A stretch of DNA of 64,000 bases, from IMG/VR virus record IMGVR_UViG_3300017748_000001, positions 62,998 to 126,997 of that record; one strand, written 5' to 3'. Below, piece by piece: positions 32,644-63,384 of this stretch. Each line of letters begins with the position of its first letter. Within the stretch, counting starts at the first letter, position 1. The translations under genes and the position numbers were made by a program. A model generated the notes under the pieces. The model did not search any database. It was not told the origin of the DNA and was given only the letters and a program-made list of their open reading frames with translations. Origin of the DNA: a virus.

Positions 32644-32663
32644 GACCAGTCCGTTTTATTTTT

Positions 32664-32671
32664 TATAAATA
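32664..32671 (+). promoter_or_regulatory. T4 late promoter TATAAATA (rightward)
   Basis: Exact consensus upstream of gp4. Confidence 0.8.
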
Positions 32672-32686
32672 ATTATTTACACCTAT

Positions 32687-32694
32687 TATTTATA
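32687..32694 (-). promoter_or_regulatory. T4 late promoter TATAAATA (leftward)
   Basis: Exact consensus upstream of gp48. Confidence 0.8.
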
Positions 32695-32706
32695 TGAGGT
32701 TTTTGA

Positions 32707-33147
32707 ATGTCGCGGAAATTTACCTACAAAGGTAGATATACTCCTGAGAATCCCCAAAAATACATAGGTGATACAAGTAAAATAGTATATCGCTCCAGTT
32801 GGGAGAGAAGATTCATGGTCTATTGTGATAAGAACCCTTCTATACTTTCATGGGCAAGTGAAGAACTTGCAATCCCCTATTTGTCACCAATCGATCACAA
32901 GATGCACCGATACTATCCAGACTTTATCGTAAAAACAAAAGATAAGGTTAGTATGATTGAAATTAAACCTAATCGCGAAACAAAACCACCCAGAAAAAAG
33001 AAAAATCAGAGAACATATATCAATGAGGTAAAGACTTGGGGTGTCAATGAAGCAAAATGGAAGGCTGCAGAGAAATACTGCGAGATGAAGGGATGGGATT
33101 TTAAAATCATCACAGAAAAACATATTTTACCGAAACTAAATAAGTAA
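32707..33147 (+). CDS. gp4: Head completion nuclease gp4 (TnsA-like fold)
   Basis: YKGRYTPENPQKYIGD..YRSSWERRFMVYCD..WASEE..RYYPDF..EIKP..VNEAKWKAA. Confidence 0.92.
   Translation: MSRKFTYKGRYTPENPQKYIGDTSKIVYRSSWERRFMVYCDKNPSILSWASEELAIPYLSPIDHKMHRYYPDFIVKTKDKVSMIEIKPNRETKPPRKKKNQRTYINEVKTWGVNEAKWKAAEKYCEMKGWDFKIITEKHILPKLNK
33135..33142 (+). promoter_or_regulatory. Late promoter variant ACTAAATA in front of the P450
   Basis: Inside the last codons of gp4, 18 nt upstream of the P450 ATG, with GGAGG (33152-33156) downstream; the same variant precedes gp26 and def. Confidence 0.55.
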
Positions 33148-33160
33148 AACTGGAGGCAAC

Positions 33161-34555
33161 ATGAGCAATCAACCAATGTGGACAGACGAAGACGAAAAAA
33201 GAATGGATATCATTGGAAGTAATGGCAACGACGGCGAACACTATGCGGAACTAGAAGAAAGAGAATCCGCAGCCGCTGCGGGATTTTCTAGAGCAGGATC
33301 AGAACAAGATGAATTTACTGGTGATATTCCTTCTGCATATGATGTTCCGTTAGAAACACTCAATCCGGTATGGAATAGACTTTTTGAAGAAAACAAGAGT
33401 CTTGAGATGTTCAAAAGACTTAGAGAAGAAGATCCAGTACACTTTAATGAGACAGACGTTGCAGGAAGATTCTGGTCATTGACAAAATATGACGATATCA
33501 AAAAAGTTGATATGAACCATCAAGAGTTTTCTTCTGAACCAATGATAACAATAGGTTATCCTGTCGGGACTCCACGCCCAGAAGGTGCGTTAGATATATC
33601 TCTGTTCATTGCAATGGATCCACCCAAACACGATCTTCAACGACGAACAGTTGCTCCAGTAGTTTCTATGAGAAGTATGATGGGACTAGAGCCCCTTATC
33701 AGAGAAAGGACTGGTGCAGTTTTAGATTCTTTGCCAGAAGACGAAACATTTAATTGGGTAGAGAATGTTTCTATTGAACTTACTACACAAATGCTCGCAA
33801 CTCTCTTTGACTTCCCATTTGAAGAACGCAGAAAGTTGACACGATGGTCTGATGTTGCGACTGCAGTTCCGGGCGCAGGTGTTATCGATACAGAACAACA
33901 AAGAATTGACGAATTGGTAGAATGTCTACAATATTTTACCGAAGTCTGGGAAATGAGAAAGAAAGAACCTACAAATGACTTCGTTTCTATGATGGTCAAA
34001 GGAGAACATACAAAAGATATGGAGCCAATGGAGTTTCTGGGTAATCTTATTCTACTGATTGTGGGAGGAAATGACACTACAAGAAATTCTATGTCTGCTG
34101 GTGTTCATGCCCTCAATCTGTTCCCCACAGAATATGAAAAACTCAAAGGAGATCTAGGTTTGATACCGAATATGGTATCAGAAATTATTAGATGGCAGAC
34201 TCCCCTCGCATATATGAGAAGAACCGCAAATGATGACTGTGTTATTGGAAATAAAGAAATTAAAAAACACGATCAGATTCTTATGTGGTATCTTTCCGGA
34301 AATCGTGACGAAGAAGTTTTCCCTAATGGAGAAGATCTAATCATTGATAGAGAGAATGCTCGTAATCATTTATCATTTGGTTTTGGAATCCATCGTTGTA
34401 TGGGAAACAGAACCGCAGAACTACAACTCAAGATTCTTTGGGAAGAAATAATGAAAAGATTTGATCGAATAGAGGTTGTAGGTGAAGAGAAACGCACATT
34501 CTCATCATTTGTCAGAGGTTATACTGAACTTCCTGTGAAAGTTTATCGAAAATAA
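33161..34555 (+). CDS. cyp153: Cytochrome P450, CYP153 (alkane/fatty-acyl omega-hydroxylase)-like
   Basis: Heme motif FGFGIHRCMG, I-helix IVGGNDTTRN, ExxR (EIIR), FIAMDPPKHD and SIELTTQMLATLFDFPFEERRKLTRWSD typical of CYP153; intact ORF with GGAGG RBS. Confidence 0.93.
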   Translation: MSNQPMWTDEDEKRMDIIGSNGNDGEHYAELEERESAAAAGFSRAGSEQDEFTGDIPSAYDVPLETLNPVWNRLFEENKSLEMFKRLREEDPVHFNETDVAGRFWSLTKYDDIKKVDMNHQEFSSEPMITIGYPVGTPRPEGALDISLFIAMDPPKHDLQRRTVAPVVSMRSMMGLEPLIRERTGAVLDSLPEDETFNWVENVSIELTTQMLATLFDFPFEERRKLTRWSDVATAVPGAGVIDTEQQRIDELVECLQYFTEVWEMRKKEPTNDFVSMMVKGEHTKDMEPMEFLGNLILLIVGGNDTTRNSMSAGVHALNLFPTEYEKLKGDLGLIPNMVSEIIRWQTPLAYMRRTANDDCVIGNKEIKKHDQILMWYLSGNRDEEVFPNGEDLIIDRENARNHLSFGFGIHRCMGNRTAELQLKILWEEIMKRFDRIEVVGEEKRTFSSFVRGYTELPVKVYRK

Positions 34556-34556
34556 A

Positions 34557-34564
34557 CATAAATA
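34557..34564 (+). promoter_or_regulatory. Late promoter variant CATAAATA
   Basis: Lies between the P450 stop and the gp2 ATG (4 nt upstream). Confidence 0.6.
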
Positions 34565-34568
34565 GAAC

Positions 34569-35165
34569 ATGGCAGACTTTAGACCACTACTCAAACGACT
34601 GGCCCAGAAGGGCATACAACCGAACTCATCGGCGGCTAGAGAGTGGTTCAGTAAAAAGGTAAGACAAAGTGCAGTAACAAGTGCATTGTCTCGTCAGCCG
34701 GGTAGGAGAAGTCTTTTATCTGACTCTGAAAGAAGAGCAGCGACCCCACAGATAGGAAAAATGTATTTCTACAATTACGATCCGAAGTTTAAAGACAAGT
34801 TGCCCTATTATGATGAGTTTCCGTTGATATTCGCGGTAGATTACTTCTCTGGAGGATTTCTAGGAATGAATTTGCATTATGTATCTCCTAGAAACAGAAT
34901 GTTGATTATGAATAGTCTGAGCGATATTGCGACAAATGCAAGATATGACTCCAGTACACGACTTGCGTTATCATACAAAGTGTTAAAGGGTGCGAGCAAA
35001 TTCAGCACAATTAAACCTTGTATCAAAAGATACTTGTATAGTAATGTAAAAAGTAGTTTTGTGTCTATAGATGCAAATGAATGGGATATCGCAATATTCC
35101 TTCCAGTACAAAGATTTAGAAAGGCCGGTGCAAGCAAAGTCTGGTCTGATTCCGCAAGAGGATAA
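34569..35165 (+). CDS. gp2: DNA end protector protein gp2
   Basis: GKMYFYNYDPKFKDKLPYYDEFPLIF..GFLGMNLHY; CIKRYL; EWDIAIFLPVQRF. Confidence 0.92.
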   Translation: MADFRPLLKRLAQKGIQPNSSAAREWFSKKVRQSAVTSALSRQPGRRSLLSDSERRAATPQIGKMYFYNYDPKFKDKLPYYDEFPLIFAVDYFSGGFLGMNLHYVSPRNRMLIMNSLSDIATNARYDSSTRLALSYKVLKGASKFSTIKPCIKRYLYSNVKSSFVSIDANEWDIAIFLPVQRFRKAGASKVWSDSARG

Positions 35166-35167
35166 CA

Positions 35168-36025
35168 ATGGCTATTAATCAAATCATTATACCGAATTTG
35201 CCCAAGATTCCGACTCAACAACAGATTCGTACTGATATAGGCAATGCGACATTTGATTTGCCGGGCCTTGGAAGACCCAGTTCTCCAGATCCGTCAAAAG
35301 ACGCACCAAAATTTAGAGAGAGTAGGAATCTTTTCCACGGCAATATGCAGGATAGATCCCCATCAGTTAGGCCGGATAGTGATAAGAAACCTTCCAGAAG
35401 CACTATTGTCGATAGAGGGGGGAAATTTAGTATACAGAATTTTTCTTCCAAGGTATCTAATAATTTATTGATACCTAATACCTATGCGTTGTTCATTCCA
35501 TACCCTGCTGGTCTTCCTAATAGTATTACAGATGGAATGTCAGAAAACTTGACTCTGAGAATTGATAATTTAGAATTGCCCGGCAAACAACTCGCCACAG
35601 AAGAAGTTCAATACTATGGCCCACCTAGAAAATCTGCATACGGAATGATATATGAAGATTTATCATTTAATGTATATCTCAGTAAAGATTTAAAAGAACG
35701 AGATTTTTTCAGCGCATGGATGGATTTGACTTATAGTTATAATACCGCTCATGTGTCATACTATGATGATATTATAAAAGACTGCACTTTCTATTCATAT
35801 GATAGAAGTTCAAATCAAAATCAAATACAATCTACGATAGATATGGTTAATAACACCTTTAACGAATTAGAGAAGAAAGAACTGAAAGACTTTTCAAATT
35901 ACTCTGTAACCTTTGAAGAAGCATATCCAATTTCTATTGGACAGATAACCTATGCATACGCATCAGACGAAATAGCAAGTTTACCTGTCACAATGGCATA
36001 CCGCAAGTGGAAAAAGTCTGACTAA
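35168..36025 (+). CDS. gp54: Baseplate tail-tube initiator gp54 (tail tube-like fold)
   Basis: LELPGKQLAT, ERDFFSAWMD, FEEAYPISIG..LPVTMAYRKW. Confidence 0.75.
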   Translation: MAINQIIIPNLPKIPTQQQIRTDIGNATFDLPGLGRPSSPDPSKDAPKFRESRNLFHGNMQDRSPSVRPDSDKKPSRSTIVDRGGKFSIQNFSSKVSNNLLIPNTYALFIPYPAGLPNSITDGMSENLTLRIDNLELPGKQLATEEVQYYGPPRKSAYGMIYEDLSFNVYLSKDLKERDFFSAWMDLTYSYNTAHVSYYDDIIKDCTFYSYDRSSNQNQIQSTIDMVNNTFNELEKKELKDFSNYSVTFEEAYPISIGQITYAYASDEIASLPVTMAYRKWKKSD

Positions 36026-36064: not shown

Positions 36065-36796
36065 ATGGCTCTACCTAAGTTAGATACGCCAACTTATAAT
36101 CTTACAATTCCGTCAACTAAAAAGAAGATTAAATATCGACCTTTTTTGGTGAAAGAAGAAAAGATTCTATTGATGGCTAACGAAGGAGACGATGTTGAAG
36201 AACAAGTAGACGCTGCAAAACAGATCATATCAAATTGCATTATAACCAAAGGTGTAAAAATTGAGAGTCTTGCAACATTCGATATAGAATACTTATTTGT
36301 CAACATTCGCAGCAAGTCTGTAGGAAACGTCGTACAGTTAAATTATAAACATGACTGTCCTGCTGGATCTGAAGACGGATCAACTACTGAGAAAGATATT
36401 AGATTTGATATCAATCTTGATAATGTTGAAATTGAAAATAATGAGGATCATACAAATAGAATTGATTTAACAGATACTATTGGTGTGATAATGAAGTATC
36501 CAGATTTTAAAATACTTAGAGGTGTTCAAAATCTGAATACATTTGAAGATACAATGAAAATGTTAAAAAATTGTATCGAATATATCTATGATGGCGACGA
36601 AGTTTACGATATTGCGGATTCTGATGATGAAGAAGTATCTGATTTTTTAGAATCTTTGTCGCAAATGCAGTTTCAGAAGATAAATACTTTTTTTGAGACT
36701 ATGCCTCAGTGTGTAACTGATGCAGTTGTGAAATGTCCTGATTGTGGATGGACAAATACCTTTAAACTACGAGGAATCACCGATTTTTTCGTATAG
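36065..36796 (+). CDS. gp26: Baseplate hub assembly protein gp26
   Basis: MALPKLDTPTYNLTIPSTKKKIKYRPFLVKEEKILLMA; FDIEYLFVNIRSKSVG; GVIMKYP; FFETMP..CPDC..LRGITDFF. Confidence 0.92.
   Translation: MALPKLDTPTYNLTIPSTKKKIKYRPFLVKEEKILLMANEGDDVEEQVDAAKQIISNCIITKGVKIESLATFDIEYLFVNIRSKSVGNVVQLNYKHDCPAGSEDGSTTEKDIRFDINLDNVEIENNEDHTNRIDLTDTIGVIMKYPDFKILRGVQNLNTFEDTMKMLKNCIEYIYDGDEVYDIADSDDEEVSDFLESLSQMQFQKINTFFETMPQCVTDAVVKCPDCGWTNTFKLRGITDFFV
36771..36790 (+). promoter_or_regulatory. Candidate -1 frameshift signal: internal SD GAGGA plus slippery T TTT TTC
   Basis: GAGGA at 36771-36775; heptamer 36784-36790 correctly phased in the gp26 frame (GAT TTT TTC GTA TAG). Confidence 0.6.
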
Positions 36797-39881: not shown

Positions 39882-39971
39882 TGGCGGAGAGGGAGAGATT
39901 CGAACTCTCGGAAGGGACTAACCTTCGCTTGTTTTCAAGACAAGTGCTTTAAACCACTCAGCCACCTCTCC
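39882..39971 (-). tRNA. trnS: tRNA-Ser(TGA)
   Basis: GGAGAGG acceptor, CTTGT-CTTGAAA-ACAAG anticodon arm, long variable arm, TTCGAAT T-loop, encoded CCA. Confidence 0.97.
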
Positions 39972-39986
39972 GTGTCTTTTAGTTAA

Positions 39987-40063
39987 TGGCGGAGTAGACG
40001 AGACTCGAACTCGCAACCACCGGCGTGACAGGCCGGTACGCTAACCAATTGCGCCACTACTCC
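39987..40063 (-). tRNA. trnD: tRNA-Asp(GTC)
   Basis: GGAGTAG acceptor, CCGGC-CTGTCAC-GCCGG anticodon arm, CCA. Confidence 0.97.
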
Positions 40064-40071
40064 AATTAAAT

Positions 40072-40079
40072 TATTTATA
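40072..40079 (-). promoter_or_regulatory. T4 late promoter TATAAATA for tRNA-Asp/Ser
   Basis: Exact consensus, 8 nt upstream of tRNA-Asp. Confidence 0.7.
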
Positions 40080-40089
40080 GACGTTAAAA

Positions 40090-40174
40090 TGGTGGCGGGG
40101 GAAGGATTCGAACCTTCGAAGGCATAGCCGTCAGATTTACAGTCTGATCCCTTTGACCGCTCGGGAACCCCGCC
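40090..40174 (-). tRNA. trnY: tRNA-Tyr(GTA)
   Basis: GGCGGGG acceptor, TCAGA-CTGTAAA-TCTGA anticodon arm, variable arm, CCA. Confidence 0.97.
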
Positions 40175-41456: not shown

Positions 41457-42794
41457 TTAAGTTTCGTTTTCATCCTTCAGAGTTTCGTTGAGTTCCCTTC
41501 GACGTTTCTCTGTTCTATCAAGTCTCTGCCATCCGCCAGAGGTTTTCATTAACACATTTTCTGCATCATCAAAATTTGGAATATCTACTGGGCCTTCTGC
41601 CGCTAGTTTTGCGTTCTTAACTGCAAGCAAATTCATGTTTGCAGCAATCAATAGAAGTACCGCAAGAGGATCGAATACAAATACAATGAGAAGTATGATC
41701 CACTTGACTGCGTTCTCTAGTGCTTCTTCTGATGCGTTATTTCCTATTGCGAGTTCTGCGATATACTTAATTGGCCCAACTTCTGCTTCCAGTTGACGGT
41801 AACTGGTTTCCAGATCAAACTTCTCTAAATTAAGTTCGTCCAGTTTGTCTTCTAGAGTATCTATTATGTTTCTTTGTTCTGCAACCAACTCTAGTTTATT
41901 ATCGTTCACAGGCGCACCCAGTTGCGCTCTAAGACGTTGTATGAGGGCATTGGAGTCAGTTATCTCCTGACGCACAGTTTCTCTTATATCCGCAATTTGA
42001 TCCATTGCGGAGTCTATATTCTGGTTGTCTTTGTTTCGTATTTCGTCAATCTTTACTAGAAGCTTGTCTCTTTCTTCTAGTTGTTGCGCCCTAAAGTAAT
42101 CAACTTTTGTTGCGGTTTCTTCTCCATAAGAACCATCGACAATAGTACCGACAATTCTTTGGATTATTCTTACGTTATTTTCTTGTATAGCGGTATCAAG
42201 TTGATCCATACGAGAATCAATATTCGCAACCTCATCTCTGTAAGGCTTGACTCTATTCTCAACAATCTCATTCTCTCTTTCGATGATACCCATCTGAGAT
42301 TTTATCTGAGGATCTGCACGTTCATATGCAGTATCAATCCTCTGTTGTTCTCTATCTATCTGACTTTGTATTCCATCAGAGAAATCTATATCAGCAGTCT
42401 CAAAATCTTGTATCTTTGCTTCTGCGGCGTCTATAAGATAGTCTGTCCGTTGGATTTCATCTTCTACTCTGAGAATCTTAGATTGATTCTCCTGATTCCC
42501 TAGTGTCTGTTCTATATGTGCTGATGATAAGAACCCAAAAATTCCCATAGAGGTTATAAACATCAATACCAGAACAGCACTTACAAAGTATGTTTTGAGT
42601 AACACTGGACAAGTTTTCCAGTTTCGATATAACCAAGATGCGGTTACGAGTTTTCCGATCTCAAGAACCACTCCCATAATGATAATTGGAAGGACTGCAG
42701 CGGAAAATATCTTTGCCAGTCCAAATATAGAATAATATGCGGCGACTCCACTAATTGCTAGTGCCGATAAAAGTGTAATTATTGCTAGTTGCAT
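41457..42794 (-). CDS. Conserved membrane protein with long coiled coil and a peptidoglycan-binding-like motif
   Basis: Three N-terminal TM segments, EAEVGPIKYIAEL plus C-terminal TM (FVFDPLAVLLLIA); central IQRIVGTIVDGSYGEETATKVDYF. Confidence 0.75.
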   Translation of the reverse strand: MQLAIITLLSALAISGVAAYYSIFGLAKIFSAAVLPIIIMGVVLEIGKLVTASWLYRNWKTCPVLLKTYFVSAVLVLMFITSMGIFGFLSSAHIEQTLGNQENQSKILRVEDEIQRTDYLIDAAEAKIQDFETADIDFSDGIQSQIDREQQRIDTAYERADPQIKSQMGIIERENEIVENRVKPYRDEVANIDSRMDQLDTAIQENNVRIIQRIVGTIVDGSYGEETATKVDYFRAQQLEERDKLLVKIDEIRNKDNQNIDSAMDQIADIRETVRQEITDSNALIQRLRAQLGAPVNDNKLELVAEQRNIIDTLEDKLDELNLEKFDLETSYRQLEAEVGPIKYIAELAIGNNASEEALENAVKWIILLIVFVFDPLAVLLLIAANMNLLAVKNAKLAAEGPVDIPNFDDAENVLMKTSGGWQRLDRTEKRRRELNETLKDENET

Positions 42795-46020: not shown

Positions 46021-46725
46021 TTAGACTATTCCTGCCTGCAGTTTATTAAGTATATAGGATTTGACAAAACAACTTCTCACGATATCTTCTTCTACAAATT
46101 CTGTAAACCCTACATCGGTCATGTTCTTCATAATATTCATAAACTGTAGTATGCCATCTTTATCGTTTGTTTTTGTGAAGTCGCTTTGACGAAAATCTCC
46201 ACAAAATATAATTCTACAATTCTTTCCTAACCTTGTAATAATTGAATCCAATTCATGGAAATTCATATTCTGACACTCATCTACTAAAATGATGGTATCG
46301 TTTAATGTGACTCCTCTGATAAATGAGGTAGTCATGAAATTAATCGCACCCTTCTTTTTCAGTAATTGGTATGCGTCTCCTCTGCAAAATAAATCAGAGA
46401 AGATTGATTTATATGGAGCCTCATAGACTTCCATCTTTTGTTCTTCCGAACCTGGCAAAAACCCGATATCTCTTGTAGGTACAATACTCCTTACTATGCT
46501 TAAATTTTTATATCTCGGGCCTAAGTCAAATAGTTCTCTCGCTGCTAGATACAAAGAAATGTAAGTCTTTCCTGTTCCAGCGACACCATGTAAAAATAGG
46601 TGTTTTCCGTTTTCAAAGTCTTCAAATACTCTGCTCTGATTCGCAGTCATTGGATGAATGTCCACTATGTTGAAGTGTGATTCGTTCAATGCGAACCTTG
46701 CAGTTTTTCTTCTATGCTTACCCAT
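46021..46725 (-). CDS. phoH: PhoH-family ATPase
   Basis: Walker A GVAGTGKT, RSIVP, GFLPG, FIRG.TL..IILVDECQN, TRLG..IIFCGDFRQSD. Start at 46725 (AGGAG RBS) preferred over 46767. Confidence 0.93.
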   Translation of the reverse strand: MGKHRRKTARFALNESHFNIVDIHPMTANQSRVFEDFENGKHLFLHGVAGTGKTYISLYLAARELFDLGPRYKNLSIVRSIVPTRDIGFLPGSEEQKMEVYEAPYKSIFSDLFCRGDAYQLLKKKGAINFMTTSFIRGVTLNDTIILVDECQNMNFHELDSIITRLGKNCRIIFCGDFRQSDFTKTNDKDGILQFMNIMKNMTDVGFTEFVEEDIVRSCFVKSYILNKLQAGIV

Positions 46726-46777
46726 GAAATGGCTCCTGTTGTTGAGCACCATCCCATAATATTCCATAATAAAAAAC

Positions 46778-47028: not shown

Positions 47029-47823
47029 CTATGCAATATTATCATAATAATCCGATATGTCATGATCTTTGACCAATGACAGAAACGGCACTTTGGAGAA
47101 GATTGAACTTACCATCAGTTTAAATCTAATCCAATCAAAATTTAATAAAGAAGATGTAGTGTACACTATTTTTTTCTTCTTGTCTACCACTTTAATGTCT
47201 CCTATGTGCCTATAGAACAACATAGGCAACGGAACGGCAGGAACTATATCGGCTCCTTGTACATGGCGGTAGATGGTTGATTTTACATTCTTTGCGTACT
47301 TTTTGCTTCCAACTCTCGGCTGGCCATAAGTGTAAACTTGACAAAGATACTTTGATCTAGCAGCAGCAACAGTTGCGAGAGCGCCTCCCAAACTGTGACC
47401 GCAAATGTAGACCAAATCTCCGGACGCATGGATTGAGTCCAGATAGAGTTCTACATCATCCCAAATTTTATCAAGGGCTTCTGCGAAACCACTATGAACA
47501 ATCCCTTGTCGTTCTTCGGATTTCTTTGGGATGATATTGATATCAGCTAAGATGTCTTTGAGTTCTGTTGGTTCAGTTCCGCGAAAAGAAAGAACAATAC
47601 AAGTTCCAGTCTTTACTACGAGTGCTTCTGTACCATCGTTATCAAAAGTTTTGAAGTGTGATTTGGTATAACCCGACAATGCATTCTCTAAGAAATGTTT
47701 GTTGTCGGTCTTGTACACTAACACTGAGAAGAGTGCTAGTTGTTTAGCGACAGATGTGGAATACTCACCCGCCTTTTCGATAGTTTTATATTTTTCGAAT
47801 TCTTTTTTTAAATCCAGTTCCAT
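47029..47823 (-). CDS. Class 3 lipase (alpha/beta hydrolase)
   Basis: VLSFRGTE..DILAD, VHSGF, GHSLGGALA nucleophile elbow, YTYGQPRVG, DIVPAVP, terminal H in DHDISDY; start at ATG 47823. Confidence 0.9.
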   Translation of the reverse strand: MELDLKKEFEKYKTIEKAGEYSTSVAKQLALFSVLVYKTDNKHFLENALSGYTKSHFKTFDNDGTEALVVKTGTCIVLSFRGTEPTELKDILADINIIPKKSEERQGIVHSGFAEALDKIWDDVELYLDSIHASGDLVYICGHSLGGALATVAAARSKYLCQVYTYGQPRVGSKKYAKNVKSTIYRHVQGADIVPAVPLPMLFYRHIGDIKVVDKKKKIVYTTSSLLNFDWIRFKLMVSSIFSKVPFLSLVKDHDISDYYDNIA

Positions 47824-48382
47824 CGTTAATCCCCATAATATCAATATTATTTATAGTATAATTATTTTTGGAGTATTTCTTCATTCTATTCTTAGCCCTC
47901 TGTATCTTGAGACTAGAAACCTTGGAAGTAAACACTACGCCGTTTAGATGATCCAGTTCATGTTGGAAACATCTCGCATCAATTCCATAAAGTAATTCTT
48001 GTCTTTTATTTTGATTTTCATCATAATACTCTACCTCAACCGACTTTGGTCTAGATATTTCTAGGAATAAATTAGGGTAACTCAGACATCCTTCTGTGTC
48101 TGCCTGAATGCTTTTGGATTTAGATAAGATCTTAGGATTTATTGCGGTGACAAATTCTCCAGAACTTCTCTGCATAACAAATATTCTGGCGTCGAGGTTG
48201 AGTTGATTCGCACTCAGGCCCCGCCCAGAATGAAATAACATATTATCTATCATCTCCACACTTAATTGTGGAGCATCGTATAGTTCGTAATCGAAGTCCT
48301 TAAGTTTAGTAGTCAGTACCTTATGTGGAGCTTCTATCAATTTCAATTTTTTATAAAAAAGTCTAGTATTAAAATTTGACAT
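47786..48382 (-). CDS. def: Peptide deformylase
   Basis: GRGLSANQL, EGCLSYP and QHELDHLNG motifs. Confidence 0.95.
   Translation of the reverse strand: MSNFNTRLFYKKLKLIEAPHKVLTTKLKDFDYELYDAPQLSVEMIDNMLFHSGRGLSANQLNLDARIFVMQRSSGEFVTAINPKILSKSKSIQADTEGCLSYPNLFLEISRPKSVEVEYYDENQNKRQELLYGIDARCFQHELDHLNGVVFTSKVSSLKIQRAKNRMKKYSKNNYTINNIDIMGINDGTGFKKRIRKI
47848..47855 (-). promoter_or_regulatory. T4 late promoter TATAAATA for the lipase
   Basis: Exact consensus embedded in the 3' end of def, 24 nt upstream of the lipase ATG. Confidence 0.7.
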
Positions 48383-55623: not shown

Positions 55624-55631
55624 TATTTATA
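55624..55631 (-). promoter_or_regulatory. T4 late promoter TATAAATA for the second fibre module
   Basis: Exact consensus overlapping the guaC stop. Confidence 0.8.
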
Positions 55632-56772
55632 TGGTGTTTTGCTCGTAGACAGTATTATATTGCCGAGTAGTTCGAATGAATGTACAACACTTGGACATAT
55701 TCTTGATATTCTTCGCACCGATATAACTACAGGTAGACCTCAGACCCCCCAGAATGTCCTGTAAGGTAGGTTCTATATCGCCCCTATACTTTATCAGTAC
55801 TTCTCTTCCTTCAGCGCTACGGTAGTTTTTGAGACCGCCATTGTGTGTTTCGTTTGCAGTCTTAGAACTCATTCCATAGAATGTGATATTCCCATCAACT
55901 ATTTCGGAATCTGGATCTAATCCCTGTTCATGACCAGACAACATTCCGCCTGCCATAACAAAGTCCGCTCCAGCACAAAAGGCCTTGGCGATATCAGCTG
56001 GAGTCCGGCATCCGCCATCCGCAATGATGTGACCGCCCAAACCGTGAGCAGCATCAGCACATTCTATGATTGCGGAAAGCTGGGGATACCCAACTCCAGT
56101 CTTAATTCTAGTCGTACATACAGAACCTGGCCCGATACCTACTTTAATGATATCTGCGCCTCGCAGTAAGAGTTCTCCGGTCTGATCTGCAGTCGCGACA
56201 TTCCCAGCGATGATAATCAAATGGGGAAATGTATTACGGATATCTTCTACATAGTCACCGAAACTTTCAGTGTATCCGTTTGCAACATCGATACAGACAT
56301 ACTTAATTTCTGTTTCAGAACACACTCGTTCTAACTTTTCTTTATCTTCTAGAGTCATGCCGATAGTCACTGCAACAGATTCTACAGTTTGTGAATTGTC
56401 TACAAAAAAGTTTATCAACTCTTCGGAACTATAACTCTTCTTGAGACAAGTAAATAATCCAAGATTCGAAAGGGTCAGTGCCATTGATAGAGTTCCGACT
56501 CCATCCATATTTGCAGCCATTATAGGAATACCAGAATAATCTCTGCGAGCAAGAGGTTTCTCATTCCAAGAGAAACTATCAAACCCATCAATTTCACCTA
56601 TGTTAATGAATTCTGGATATTCTGGCGGAGTTCTTAAATGTGCAGGCGGAGAATAATTGCGAAATTGATATTCTCTTTCTAGTTGTACTTCGCCGCGTGA
56701 GGTAAGTGTAGATCTTTTGGGGCGAATCAAAACATCATCGAAGTCATACTTTAATGCTTCTTCAATTATCAT
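55627..56772 (-). CDS. guaC: GMP reductase
   Basis: DVLIRPKRSTLTSR, PIMAANMD, CIDVANGY, KVGIGPGSVCTTRIKTGVGYPQLSAIIECADAAHGLGGHIIADGG, FYGMSS, YRSAEG, GGLRSTCSYIGA. Confidence 0.93.
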   Translation of the reverse strand: MIIEEALKYDFDDVLIRPKRSTLTSRGEVQLEREYQFRNYSPPAHLRTPPEYPEFINIGEIDGFDSFSWNEKPLARRDYSGIPIMAANMDGVGTLSMALTLSNLGLFTCLKKSYSSEELINFFVDNSQTVESVAVTIGMTLEDKEKLERVCSETEIKYVCIDVANGYTESFGDYVEDIRNTFPHLIIIAGNVATADQTGELLLRGADIIKVGIGPGSVCTTRIKTGVGYPQLSAIIECADAAHGLGGHIIADGGCRTPADIAKAFCAGADFVMAGGMLSGHEQGLDPDSEIVDGNITFYGMSSKTANETHNGGLKNYRSAEGREVLIKYRGDIEPTLQDILGGLRSTCSYIGAKNIKNMSKCCTFIRTTRQYNTVYEQNTI

Positions 56773-58106: not shown

Positions 58107-58182
58107 TGGTGCCGGTTGAGAGAATCGAACTCCCGACCTTCTCATTACAAGTGAGTTGCTCTACCTGCTGAGCTAAACCGGC
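58107..58182 (-). tRNA. trnT: tRNA-Thr(TGT)
   Basis: GCCGGTT acceptor, CTTGTAA anticodon loop, TTCGATT T-loop, CCA; A27.A43 mismatch at the top of the anticodon stem. Confidence 0.95.
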
Positions 58183-58188
58183 AAAGAG

Positions 58189-58355
58189 GGTAGAGGCGGA
58201 TGGGAATCCAACCCATCGGAAAACTTGTCGTATCCTATCCTCAGTGCGTAGTACAGGAACCGCGTTGCCCACACGATTAATGCCATCTCTGAAGTACTAG
58301 GGGGCAATTGACTCAGGCTCTCTATAGAGCATTTCCTCAAATCGCAGACGCCTCA
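58189..58355 (-). ncRNA. tRNA-like / tmRNA-TLD-like RNA of about 167 nt
   Basis: Acceptor TGAGGCG/CGCCTCT, D-like loop TCTGCGATTTGA, GGAAA/TTTCC helix, T-arm GATGGG-TTGGATT-CCCATC, 3' ACC. Confidence 0.6.
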
Positions 58356-58360
58356 TTATT

Positions 58361-58582
58361 CTATATTTTTTTCCAATCCTTTATTGTAGAAACTCGTATA
58401 TCTTGATACTGTTTAGTTTCTGTATTTTGTACCACAATAACATCACTAGTAGAATTCTGATGCATCGGTTTACCTTTCATGGTTCCGATCACAGACTCCG
58501 TTCTACCAGAGTTGACAGTTTTGTAAGTGATTTTTGCTGTGCCCAAACTAAGGGTCTTCAACAGGTTTTCAATTGTATCCAT
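58361..58582 (-). CDS. Small beta-barrel (SH3/WYL-like) hypothetical protein
   Basis: AKITYKTVNSGRT..GT..IVVQ..QYQDIRVSTI pattern; GAGAG RBS. Confidence 0.6.
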   Translation of the reverse strand: MDTIENLLKTLSLGTAKITYKTVNSGRTESVIGTMKGKPMHQNSTSDVIVVQNTETKQYQDIRVSTIKDWKKI

Positions 58583-58598
58583 TACAAAAGTCTCTCTT

Positions 58599-58673
58599 TG
58601 GAGCGGGTACTGAGAATCGAACTCAGATGATCAGCTTGGAAGGCTGACGTAATAGCCTTTATACGATACCCGC
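58599..58673 (-). tRNA. trnG: tRNA-Gly(TCC)
   Basis: GCGGGTA acceptor, TCAGC-CTTCCAA-GCTGA anticodon arm, CCA. Confidence 0.96.
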
Positions 58674-62655: not shown

Positions 62656-63384
62656 TTAAATTCCTAAAGGATTGGCATTCTCAATCCGATCTTTTGCAAT
62701 ATTAAAATACTTCTCTTCCATTTCAATCCCAATAAAGTTGCGTTGGGTGTTCATACACGCAACCCCAGTAGTACCACTGCCCATAGTGTTATCAAGAACT
62801 GTATCACCTTCATTAGAATATGTTTTGATAAAATACTCCATCATCTCAATGGGTTTTTGTGTTGGGTGATAACCCTTCTCTTGCTTCCATCGTTGTACAG
62901 TCTTTGGATATCGAGACCCATCCGGATTGTCACGATGTTTAGACTTTGCACTGCCGTAGACTTCGCCAATCTTAGATTTTTCTGAAGAGAATCCACTGTA
63001 TGGTGTACTGTACCACATTTGCGGATTGTATGTAGGTTTATCTCTATAAAACACCAAAACATTTTCATGAGACTTTAAAGGCATGATCTTGGCATTCATT
63101 GGGTTAGTTCCCTGAGGCTTCTCCCATATCCACTCATACTTTAAGTTCTCAATATTTGATGCAGCCAACACAGTTGTAAACGGTTGTTGAGAAGTGAATA
63201 CCATAGCGGCATTCTTTTTACATACACGATTATACTGATCCCACAACTGATCAAGTGGAATAATAGTGTCCCACTTACAGGCAGTAGTGCCGTATGGCAG
63301 ATCTACCAATAACATATCAACGGAGTTATCATCGATCTCCGGCAAAACATCCAAACAATTTCCTATGCGTAAATCTCTTTCCAT
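62656..63384 (-). CDS. DNA N6-A/N4-C methyltransferase (beta class)
   Basis: Motif IV variant DLPYG, WIWEK, HENVLVF, HPTQKP, motif I LDNTMGSGTTG, FIGIE. Confidence 0.92.
   Translation of the reverse strand: MERDLRIGNCLDVLPEIDDNSVDMLLVDLPYGTTACKWDTIIPLDQLWDQYNRVCKKNAAMVFTSQQPFTTVLAASNIENLKYEWIWEKPQGTNPMNAKIMPLKSHENVLVFYRDKPTYNPQMWYSTPYSGFSSEKSKIGEVYGSAKSKHRDNPDGSRYPKTVQRWKQEKGYHPTQKPIEMMEYFIKTYSNEGDTVLDNTMGSGTTGVACMNTQRNFIGIEMEEKYFNIAKDRIENANPLGI

Follow-up and report, generated by a model that had tools for sequence, protein, structure and literature searches.

What is a cytochrome P450 gene doing among the virion genes of a marine phage, where did it come from, and how would its product obtain electrons? 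These questions are raised by IMG/VR virus record IMGVR_UViG_3300017748_000001, a viral contig of 126,997 bp with an estimated completeness of 63%. Its final 64 kb (positions 62,998 to 126,997; hereafter the window, 64,000 nucleotides (nt), to which coordinates refer unless stated otherwise) contain an intact gene for a CYP153-family P450 on the plus strand (33161..34555). An earlier, model-made reading of this DNA, here called the original prediction, had described a phage-borne CYP153 embedded in a late transcription unit and running on borrowed electrons, and this core holds as far as the sequence can tell. Our overall reading, to which we give a probability of roughly 60%, is that the gene encodes a soluble class I CYP153 monooxygenase that was captured once, is expressed late, is powered by the host and hydroxylates aliphatic compounds.

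The P450 and its place in the phage genome

The gene starts with ATG, stops at 34553-34555 and encodes 464 residues that match Pfam p450; the range originally given for it, 33135-34564, comprises this open reading frame and two flanking 8-mers. All P450 motifs lie in invariant or near-invariant columns of an alignment of 95 CYP153 sequences. They include the I-helix signature GGNDTT (residues 302-307; 34064..34081, plus strand) in invariant columns, extended to the CYP153-type GGNDTTRN (residues 302-309) in conserved ones, the EXXR motif EIIR (residues 341-344; 34181..34192, plus strand), likewise conserved, and the heme-binding loop FGFGIHRCMG (residues 406-415; 34376..34405, plus strand). 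The latter has the FxxGxHxCxG heme-thiolate pattern, and its Cys413 (codon 34397-34399) is invariant in the 95 sequences. LFIAMDPPKH occupies residues 148-157, with FIAMDPP at 149-155. An intact 464-residue protein and the three motifs FGFGIHRCMG, GGNDTT and EIIR had been claimed originally, and all were found at the places given.

Assignment to CYP153 is supported by sequence and by predicted structure. A phmmer search of the PDB gave E values of 1e-144 to 1e-131 for eleven solved CYP153 chains, and the top sequence matches were all CYP153 (1e-144 to 1e-102), far ahead of CYP125 and CYP124. An AlphaFold2 model built from the 95-row alignment reached a mean predicted local distance difference test score (pLDDT) of 80.2; one built from a 14-row alignment (mean pLDDT 47.8) was unusable and was set aside. 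The accepted model superposes on CYP153A structures with template-modelling (TM) scores of 0.88-0.91 at 52-56% identity, the best being 0.91 to 7ao7, and all 28 top Foldseek matches were CYP153 entries. This 52-56% comparison, over ~405 residues, covers the Polaromonas enzyme (7ANT/7AO7), P450pyr (3RWL, deposited as CYP153A7), Marinobacter aquaeolei CYP153A (5FYF, 5FYG), CYP153A71 (8B2P) and the P450 of Acinetobacter EB104 plasmid pAC450; identity is 53% to the last of these and 56% to the Polaromonas JS666 P450. Among the matched CYP153A structures are complexes with octan-1-ol, octanoic acid and 12-hydroxydodecanoic acid. P450 nomenclature places proteins with more than 40% amino-acid identity in the same family and draws the subfamily line at 55%. 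By sequence the phage protein thus belongs to CYP153, as originally proposed, and membership of subfamily A is borderline, its identities lying around that line. With the CYP153A enzymes it shares the fold, the heme loop, GGNDTTRN, EXXR and FIAMDPP; it differs from them in being phage-encoded, in a phage-specific N-terminal extension of 41 residues and in 17 fixed substitutions specific to its clade. PHROGs holds no family for the P450.

The contig is that of an uncultured marine T4-like myovirus. It carries the T4 core genes gp23 (major capsid protein, E 2e-143), gp32, gp59, gp26, gp53, gp4 and gp2, and Pfam and PHROGs also identified tail-tube and other baseplate genes. No deposited phage shares more than 60% identity with its capsid protein, which is about as distant from those of T4-like cyanophages as from those of Methylophilales phage Melnitz and of Pelagibacter phage Mosig. 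The P450 gene is flanked on both sides by viral hallmark genes, which the original prediction had named as core genes 4 and 2, with the P450 13 nt past the gp4 stop; this was read directly, and a further 13 nt separate it from gp2. Upstream lies the gene for a gp4-like head completion protein (32707..33147, plus strand; phrog_218 head closure, E 6.7e-59; TAA stop at 33145-33147), the first gene of a plus-strand late unit, which also matches Pfam Tn7_TnsA-like_N. Downstream, a gp2-like DNA end protector (34569..35165, plus strand; phrog_429, E 3.5e-54) is followed in the same strand block by a tail-tube/gp48-like gene (35168-36025, plus strand) and a gp26 baseplate hub gene (36065-36796, plus strand), the block matching phrog_45, phrog_150 and Pfam T4_baseplate.

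The same gp4-P450-gp2 order was found in seven other IMG/VR contigs from different samples, with P450s of 85-97% protein identity, so that the syntenic clade originally suggested as a check does exist. One of these relatives, a complete genome of 200,733 bp, has direct terminal repeats, encodes T4 gp23 and runs collinear with the contig of the window (80-92% DNA identity). In all 74 more distant relatives, fetched via gp2 (gp2 identity at most 80%), gp4 abuts gp2. Judged by these sequences, the P450 is therefore an insertion at the gp4|gp2 junction, limited to a narrow clade. Contigs from independent marine metagenomes also cover the P450 and bridge the P450/gp2 junction, and this stretch or parts of it are present in 20 public runs of 14 studies. 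A tblastn search of the P450 against 50,697 deposited phage genomes gave no match with an E value of 1e-5 or below.

A different CYP153 (55-56% identity, 416 residues, lacking the N-terminal extension) occurs in a second, unrelated viral lineage (L190:4956-6206, L192 and L193), near a Dps/ferritin gene. The contigs measure 25-57 kb with an estimated completeness of 7-16%; no gp23 was found on the pieces examined, and the lineage may be a jumbo phage. Since it is unrelated and its CYP153 is a different one, viruses have captured CYP153 at least twice.

Origin, selection and electron supply

Among cellular proteins, the phage P450 is closest, at 75-79% identity, to homologues from marine Gammaproteobacteria that bear the labels OM182, K189A clade, TMED92 or Pseudomonadales. 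Maximum-likelihood analysis of 61 sequences placed the eight phage P450s in one clade (Shimodaira-Hasegawa-like approximate likelihood ratio support 100), nested in marine gammaproteobacterial CYP153s and sister to P0003, P0008 and P0009 (support 96). The proportion of G+C at third codon positions (GC3) is 0.28 in the P450, within the 0.25-0.40 of the flanking phage genes and below the 0.50-0.65 of the closest bacterial homologues, which bears out the long residence that had been proposed from its A/T-rich codons. Among seven phage copies, none with an internal stop, the pairwise ratio of nonsynonymous to synonymous substitution rates (dN/dS) is 0.03-0.10, with synonymous divergence (dS) of up to 0.8. 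The phylogeny and the selection analysis, both called for by the original prediction, thus returned a single phage clade inside CYP153 that is under purifying selection. From these sequences we conclude that the gene was captured once and long ago and has been retained by selection, and it is an auxiliary gene in the sense of a host-derived metabolic gene under purifying selection.

The orthologous bacterial gene is an orphan CYP153 paralogue followed by a DUF5916 gene and located near TonB-dependent receptors. Its neighbourhood, DUF4856-P450-DUF5916, is conserved among the bacteria, and the phage did not take those neighbours. The orphan CYP153s of OM182/K189A/TMED92-type Gammaproteobacteria also resemble the phage copies in having no linked redox genes; unlike them, they have no N-terminal module, are richer in GC3 and keep the DUF4856-P450-DUF5916 order. 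NCBI assigns one member of the sister group, P0003, to Acidimicrobiaceae. Its twin P0008 is nearly identical, and the contig encoding that twin (L099, GCA_902631405.1) shows the DUF4856-P450-DUF5916-Lin0512 synteny of OM182-type Gammaproteobacteria and bears a TonB-dependent receptor, and the label on P0003 is probably a binning error.

In three contigs of the clade, L004 (5028-5999, plus strand), L005 and L191 (2665-3636), a second gene lies between gp4 and the P450. It encodes 323 residues matching PF04116 (E 9e-24), the fatty-acid hydroxylase/sterol desaturase superfamily, and a loose end in an independent metagenome matches this variant. The gene is found neither in the examined part of the window's contig nor in the complete relative. 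Its nearest bacterial relatives (56-61% identity) are marine Pseudomonadales, for example Azotimanducaceae (HTCC2089). We considered whether the two genes had come from one bacterial P450 operon and rejected this, as the bacterial PF04116 homologues are not beside CYP153. The phage has set side by side two lipid-type oxygenases of one bacterial group, which strengthens both the host assignment and the reading of an aliphatic substrate; the two captured genes point to OM182/K189A/HTCC2089-type Gammaproteobacteria as the probable host.

Class I enzymes of this family may be encoded with their partners, as in the ferredoxin-P450-reductase operon of pAC450 and the P450-reductase-ferredoxin arrangement of the Polaromonas plasmid; the phage P450, by contrast, has no adjacent partner genes and forms no three-gene operon. 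Profile searches with Fer2, Pyr_redox_2 and Flavodoxin_1 gave no match in the 127-kb contig or the complete 200.7-kb relative, nor did tblastn with the ferredoxins and ferredoxin reductases of the Acinetobacter and Polaromonas CYP153 operons. The original statement that the window holds no ferredoxin or reductase gene can thus be extended to the whole contig and the complete relative. Because the phage encodes no ferredoxin, ferredoxin reductase or flavodoxin, the enzyme would have to draw host electrons, and class I partners of the host are the likely source.

In the donor-type bacteria, no ferredoxin or reductase gene was found within 6-8 kb of the orthologous orphan P450. These bacteria have two CYP153 paralogues, the orphan beside DUF5916, which is orthologous to the phage gene, and a canonical one beside a putidaredoxin-type ferredoxin. 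Three of the five donor-type genomes searched (those of L103, L104 and L111) encode a ferredoxin 51-57% identical to that of EB104 beside the second paralogue (L353-L355), and all three also encode, elsewhere in the genome, a reductase 50% identical to that of EB104 (L358-L360). As the partners are present and unlinked to the orphan P450, a host of the OM182/K189A type could supply the electron chain, which agrees with the borrowing of host redox partners suggested originally.

Expression signals and the N-terminal peptide

Both strands of the divergent region in front of gp4 (32644-32706) carry TATAAATA, the canonical motif of T4-type late promoters, once each. On the plus strand it (32664..32671) lies 35 nt before the gp4 ATG, and the minus-strand copy at 32694 faces the divergent baseplate genes. 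Across the 127-kb contig, TATAAATA occurs within 60 nt upstream of 15 of the 107 genes (0.6 expected). A late-promoter-like variant, ACTAAATA (33135..33142, plus strand), lies in the last codons of gp4, 18 nt before the P450 ATG; this putative promoter is conserved in all clade members whatever cassette gene comes next, and the 8-mer is found upstream of four of the 107 genes (0.2 expected). A GGAGG ribosome-binding site (33152..33156, plus strand) precedes the ATG by 4 nt. Terminator-like sites were not found between gp4, P450 and gp2. A terminator-like hairpin at 33266-33282, in the N-terminal coding part, is present in the window and L002, and partly in L003, is not conserved otherwise and was taken as chance. 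With TATAAATA upstream of gp4 and no terminator in between, the P450 is likely to be co-transcribed late with the virion genes, whatever the variant 8-mers do.

The ribosome-binding site and the variant 18 nt upstream had both been reported in the original prediction and can be read directly, and the embedding in a late operon stands; its promoter claim has to be revised, as the stronger late promoter is the canonical TATAAATA at 32664, which it did not mention. It had further proposed that CATAAATA (34557..34564, plus strand; 1 nt past the P450 stop) restarts transcription for gp2. T4 late promoters start transcription a few bases downstream of the motif. CATAAATA ends 4 nt before the gp2 ATG, so that a start just downstream of it could give only a leaderless message, and the restart is doubtful. 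The motif lies upstream of three of the 107 genes (0.2 expected). In the empty site of L025, the nearest of the 74 relatives, it overlaps the gp4 stop 22 nt before gp2, which identifies CATAAATA by sequence comparison as the ancestral motif of the gp4/gp2 junction.

The N-terminal extension (residues 1-41; 33161..33283, plus strand) is absent from all bacterial homologues, the homology to bacterial CYP153s beginning near Phe42, and is predicted to be flexible (pLDDT below 50). It is nevertheless constrained in sequence: dN/dS is ~0.1 over codons 1-55, and residues 7-28 show, among seven copies, many synonymous differences and only two replacements, both conservative. This core, WTDEDEKRMDIIGSNGNDGEHY (33179..33244, plus strand), is a peptide module common to many unrelated phage proteins. 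At the head of the P450s it has the form (W/F)(D/E)ExEKRMDIIGxNGNDGEHY, roughly 22 residues. When the first 34 residues were used in tblastn, short stretches were matched in proteins of 22 deposited phages from unrelated groups, at varied positions, and a back-translated pattern for GxNGNDGEHY, for which we estimate a chance of ~2^-42 per position, matched more than 118 IMG/VR contigs. Cultured carriers of the peptide include Pseudomonas phage PspYZU01 and Itty13. Among the matches listed, the extended consensus is (D/E)ExRMDIIGQNGNDGEHY, and 59 distinct carriers fall into 8 Pfam and 44 PHROG families. These include the ribonucleotide reductase small chain (NrdB), PTPS/QueD, a 5'-3' exonuclease, RimK-like proteins and DUF3310 ('nucleotide kinases'), and the module is N-terminal, internal or C-terminal in its carriers (L235-L314). 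The P450 is its sole carrier in the window's phage and in the complete relative.

Pfam and PHROGs gave no match to residues 1-60 and the ESM Atlas no usable match to residues 1-40, and we found no description of the motif in the literature. A shared neighbour gene was also sought at 77 tag-bearing loci; there was none, and the clusters that co-occurred most often probably represent genes in synteny with a single protein family of 27 members. By its distribution the module behaves as a portable peptide tag, which we assume to serve in docking or regulation. One tentative proposal is that it is an address label read by a single partner, a phage or host protein, and used by many phages on unrelated enzymes, which would plug the captured hydroxylase into a phage-controlled assembly, joined in some strains by the fatty-acid-hydroxylase-family enzyme as a late module for lipid or hydrocarbon oxidation. 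Carried by so many unrelated phage enzymes, the module may hint at a common strategy by which phages arrange their enzymes.

Proposed role, rival explanations and wider setting

In the mechanism that we favour, the gene would encode a functional CYP153, a soluble heme-thiolate monooxygenase of class I. The clade ancestor would have captured it once from a marine OM182/K189A-type gammaproteobacterium (Pseudomonadales in GTDB usage), the probable host group, the source being the orphan paralogue beside DUF5916, and it would have been inserted into the gp4|gp2 junction. Late in infection it would be transcribed in a gp4-P450-gp2-tail/baseplate unit from the TATAAATA promoter before gp4 and translated from its own GGAGG site. 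Electrons would come from a CYP153-type [2Fe-2S] ferredoxin and an FAD reductase of the host, as the bacterial orthologue presumably obtains them from unlinked genes. Most probably, the enzyme would hydroxylate the terminal position of an aliphatic substrate of medium or long chain length, be it an n-alkane, a fatty acid or the acyl chain of a lipid, and in this way may keep up or boost the host's hydrocarbon or lipid oxidation in late infection. The substrate and the purposes originally suggested (carbon supply, membrane weakening and virion modification) are conjecture.

Several observations weigh against this reading. The phage clade sits on a long stem branch, with 0.36 substitutions per site, and has fixed a residue of its own at 17 positions where at least 90% of the 22 closest bacterial sequences share a different one. 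Six of the 17 fall in a flexible loop before FIAMDPP (residues 126-139; 33536..33577, plus strand; pLDDT below 50 at 128-135), and four substitutions (G128M, L278M, A279V and G370H) hit positions whose conservation among the sampled, more distant CYP153 sequences is 87% or higher. This clustering and the changes at conserved positions suggest that the specificity of the enzyme may have shifted away from that of the donor. Some of the divergence in amino acids may be a by-product of the move towards A/T-rich codons, with the FYMINK fraction raised and the GARP fraction lowered in the phage P450s. The conserved neighbour of the bacterial orphan is a DUF5916 protein and not a set of alkane-pathway genes. 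Furthermore, the G+C content of the phage (39%) is below that of donor-type bacterial genomes (47-56%), so that the phage may now infect a host other than the donor.

Expression and electron supply carry similar reservations. An RNA library, one data set apparently filed twice (X17, X18), yielded identical unstranded contigs at 33740-33978 and 34422-34747, the second crossing the P450/gp2 junction; with possible DNA carry-over, these are a weak, unstranded hint of transcription, and as the contigs leave parts of the P450 uncovered, the gaps support no inference. The complete relative (G001, at ~19 kb; L008:18908-19959) encodes an SdhB-like Fe-S protein with Fer2_3 and 4Fe-4S dicluster domains, whose gene adjoins one for an Fe-S cluster assembly protein (PF01883), in a region beyond the end of the window's contig. 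A complete lack of electron carriers encoded by the phage is thus not strictly established. We considered the protein as a dedicated P450 partner and regard this as unlikely: SdhB-like genes occur in ~30 IMG/VR contigs of 31-43% G+C, most of them without the flanking genes seen in the relative, and the locus lies past the contig end.

Four other explanations of the gene were weighed. An artefact or dead passenger, that is a chimera, a misfiled bacterial contig or a decaying gene, might be suspected from a metagenome-assembled and incomplete contig whose P450 has no homologue in deposited phage genomes. Chimeric assembly had itself been named in the original prediction as what would overturn it. 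It is contradicted by eight contigs from different samples with the same junctions, one of them a complete genome with terminal repeats and gp23, and by the independent metagenome contigs; decay is contradicted by phage-like codon composition, purifying selection and open reading frames in seven copies. This explanation is refuted as far as these data allow. A very improbable alternative is that the N-terminal peptide resembles the capsid-targeting sequence of T4 and that the P450 is a virion modifier or a cargo injected with the DNA. In its favour are a probably late gene set between those for head completion and DNA end protection, a conserved and flexible extension, and an L-E-E at residues 31-33, which we take to resemble the LxE site of the T4 prohead protease. 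Against it, the tag is also found on NrdB-type, QueD-type, 5'-3' exonuclease and nucleotide-kinase-like proteins, at either end or internally, and its presence on enzymes of replication and nucleotide metabolism argues against a capsid-loading signal; an injected P450 would, moreover, still need host electrons.

The remaining two explanations concern the substrate. It is possible, with a chance well below that of the favoured mechanism, that the enzyme serves lipid remodelling and not hydrocarbon catabolism, with late hydroxylation of the host's fatty acids or the acyl chains of its membrane lipids altering the envelope before lysis or freeing material; in a variant of this idea it would act with the neighbouring di-iron PF04116 enzyme in some strains, and possibly with a phage class 3 lipase. 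The PF04116 gene directly upstream of the P450 in three contigs and matched in an independent metagenome, a Lipase_3 gene in the window (47029-47823, minus strand), the placing of the P450 among late genes and the fatty acids and alkanols named in the titles of solved CYP153A structures all fit this proposal. The P450 does not need the PF04116 gene, which is missing from the examined part of the window's contig and from the complete relative and whose bacterial homologues are not neighbours of CYP153, and the lipase, to which no named bacterium offers a close relative, appears older and unrelated to the P450 clade. Rather less probable is a substrate that is a small molecule not present in bulk, either an acyl-homoserine lactone signal or a metabolite of the host or a competitor that hampers infection, with a regulatory or protective benefit. 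The long stem and the phage-fixed substitutions in the flexible loop and at conserved positions could be so explained, and the bacterial orthologue is an orphan kept beside a canonical, ferredoxin-linked CYP153, suggesting a distinct substrate. Positive evidence for such a substrate was not found, however, the identity of 52-56% is to alkane and fatty-acid hydroxylases, and the codon shift may account for part of the divergence. Aliphatic hydroxylation on host electrons thus remains the reading that we prefer.

Published viral P450s (Lamb et al., as summarised in PMC9405906) are those of giant viruses, Ranid herpesvirus 3 and Mycobacterium phage Adler; as here, none is accompanied by a known redox partner gene and host partners are presumed. 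They belong to other P450 families and other viruses, and for the phage CYP153 there are in addition a donor lineage, a conserved site, evidence of selection and a peptide fusion. A cold-seep virome catalogue lists cyp153 among putative viral auxiliary metabolic genes and proposes aerobic alkane oxidation (bioRxiv 10.64898/2025.12.10.692286); in its passages on the gene this is a catalogue-level mention from a different habitat, without analysis of lineage, synteny, selection or partners. Cyanophages, as described in bioRxiv 10.1101/2020.02.07.937771, carry phage ferredoxins and ferredoxin-dependent oxidoreductases as redox auxiliary genes, and the likeness lies in a marine T4-like phage with a host-derived, ferredoxin-dependent oxidoreductase. 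Whereas cyanophages often carry a ferredoxin of their own, the P450 clade has none; it likewise lacks psbA, and its capsid protein is distant from those of cultured phages. We found no account of CYP153 in T4-like marine phages in the literature. Novel here are the phage-specific 41-residue extension with its portable peptide and the sub-lineage with an added fatty-acid-hydroxylase-family gene.

In photic-zone metatranscriptomes, marine Pseudomonadales (Halieaceae, Alcanivoracaceae and HTCC2089) are reported to be the only clade expressing cyp153, and marine cyanobacteria release large amounts of alkanes that uncultured Gammaproteobacteria consume via AlkB and CYP153 (PMC13488336). Phages may thus take part in marine hydrocarbon or lipid oxidation, and the retention of a CYP153 by selection in a T4-like clade that is widespread would give viruses a direct part in this short-term hydrocarbon or lipid cycle. 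The locus also makes a viral P450 accessible to study: its donor is clear, candidate redox partners can be identified, and a second lipid oxygenase is present in some natural variants and absent from others.

Other auxiliary-type genes in the window lie on the minus strand and encode PhoH (46021-46767), a peptide deformylase (47786-48382) and a dehydrogenase of the IMPDH/GMP-reductase family (55627-56772). The Lipase_3 gene was also considered as a clue to the host and proved uninformative, its closest relatives being marine sequences and named bacteria reaching at most ~42% identity; it appears to be an older gene that is widespread in probably viral marine contigs. Between the gp32 and gp59 genes, a 445-residue open reading frame (41457-42794, minus strand) gave a weak SMODS nucleotidyltransferase match (E 8e-4) and showed an N-terminal membrane-like region, both below Pfam cut-offs. 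Two minus-strand tRNA clusters, with coordinates converted from contig positions, encode Ser(tga), Asp(gtc) and Tyr(gta) (39882-40174) and Thr(tgt) and Gly(tcc) (58107-58673). Outside the window, at ~13.7, 18.7, 34.8 and 36.8 kb of the contig, stretches of ~800 bp have counterparts, at 76-86% identity, at several distinct sites in the complete relative, which suggests a multi-copy element or a paralogous gene family.

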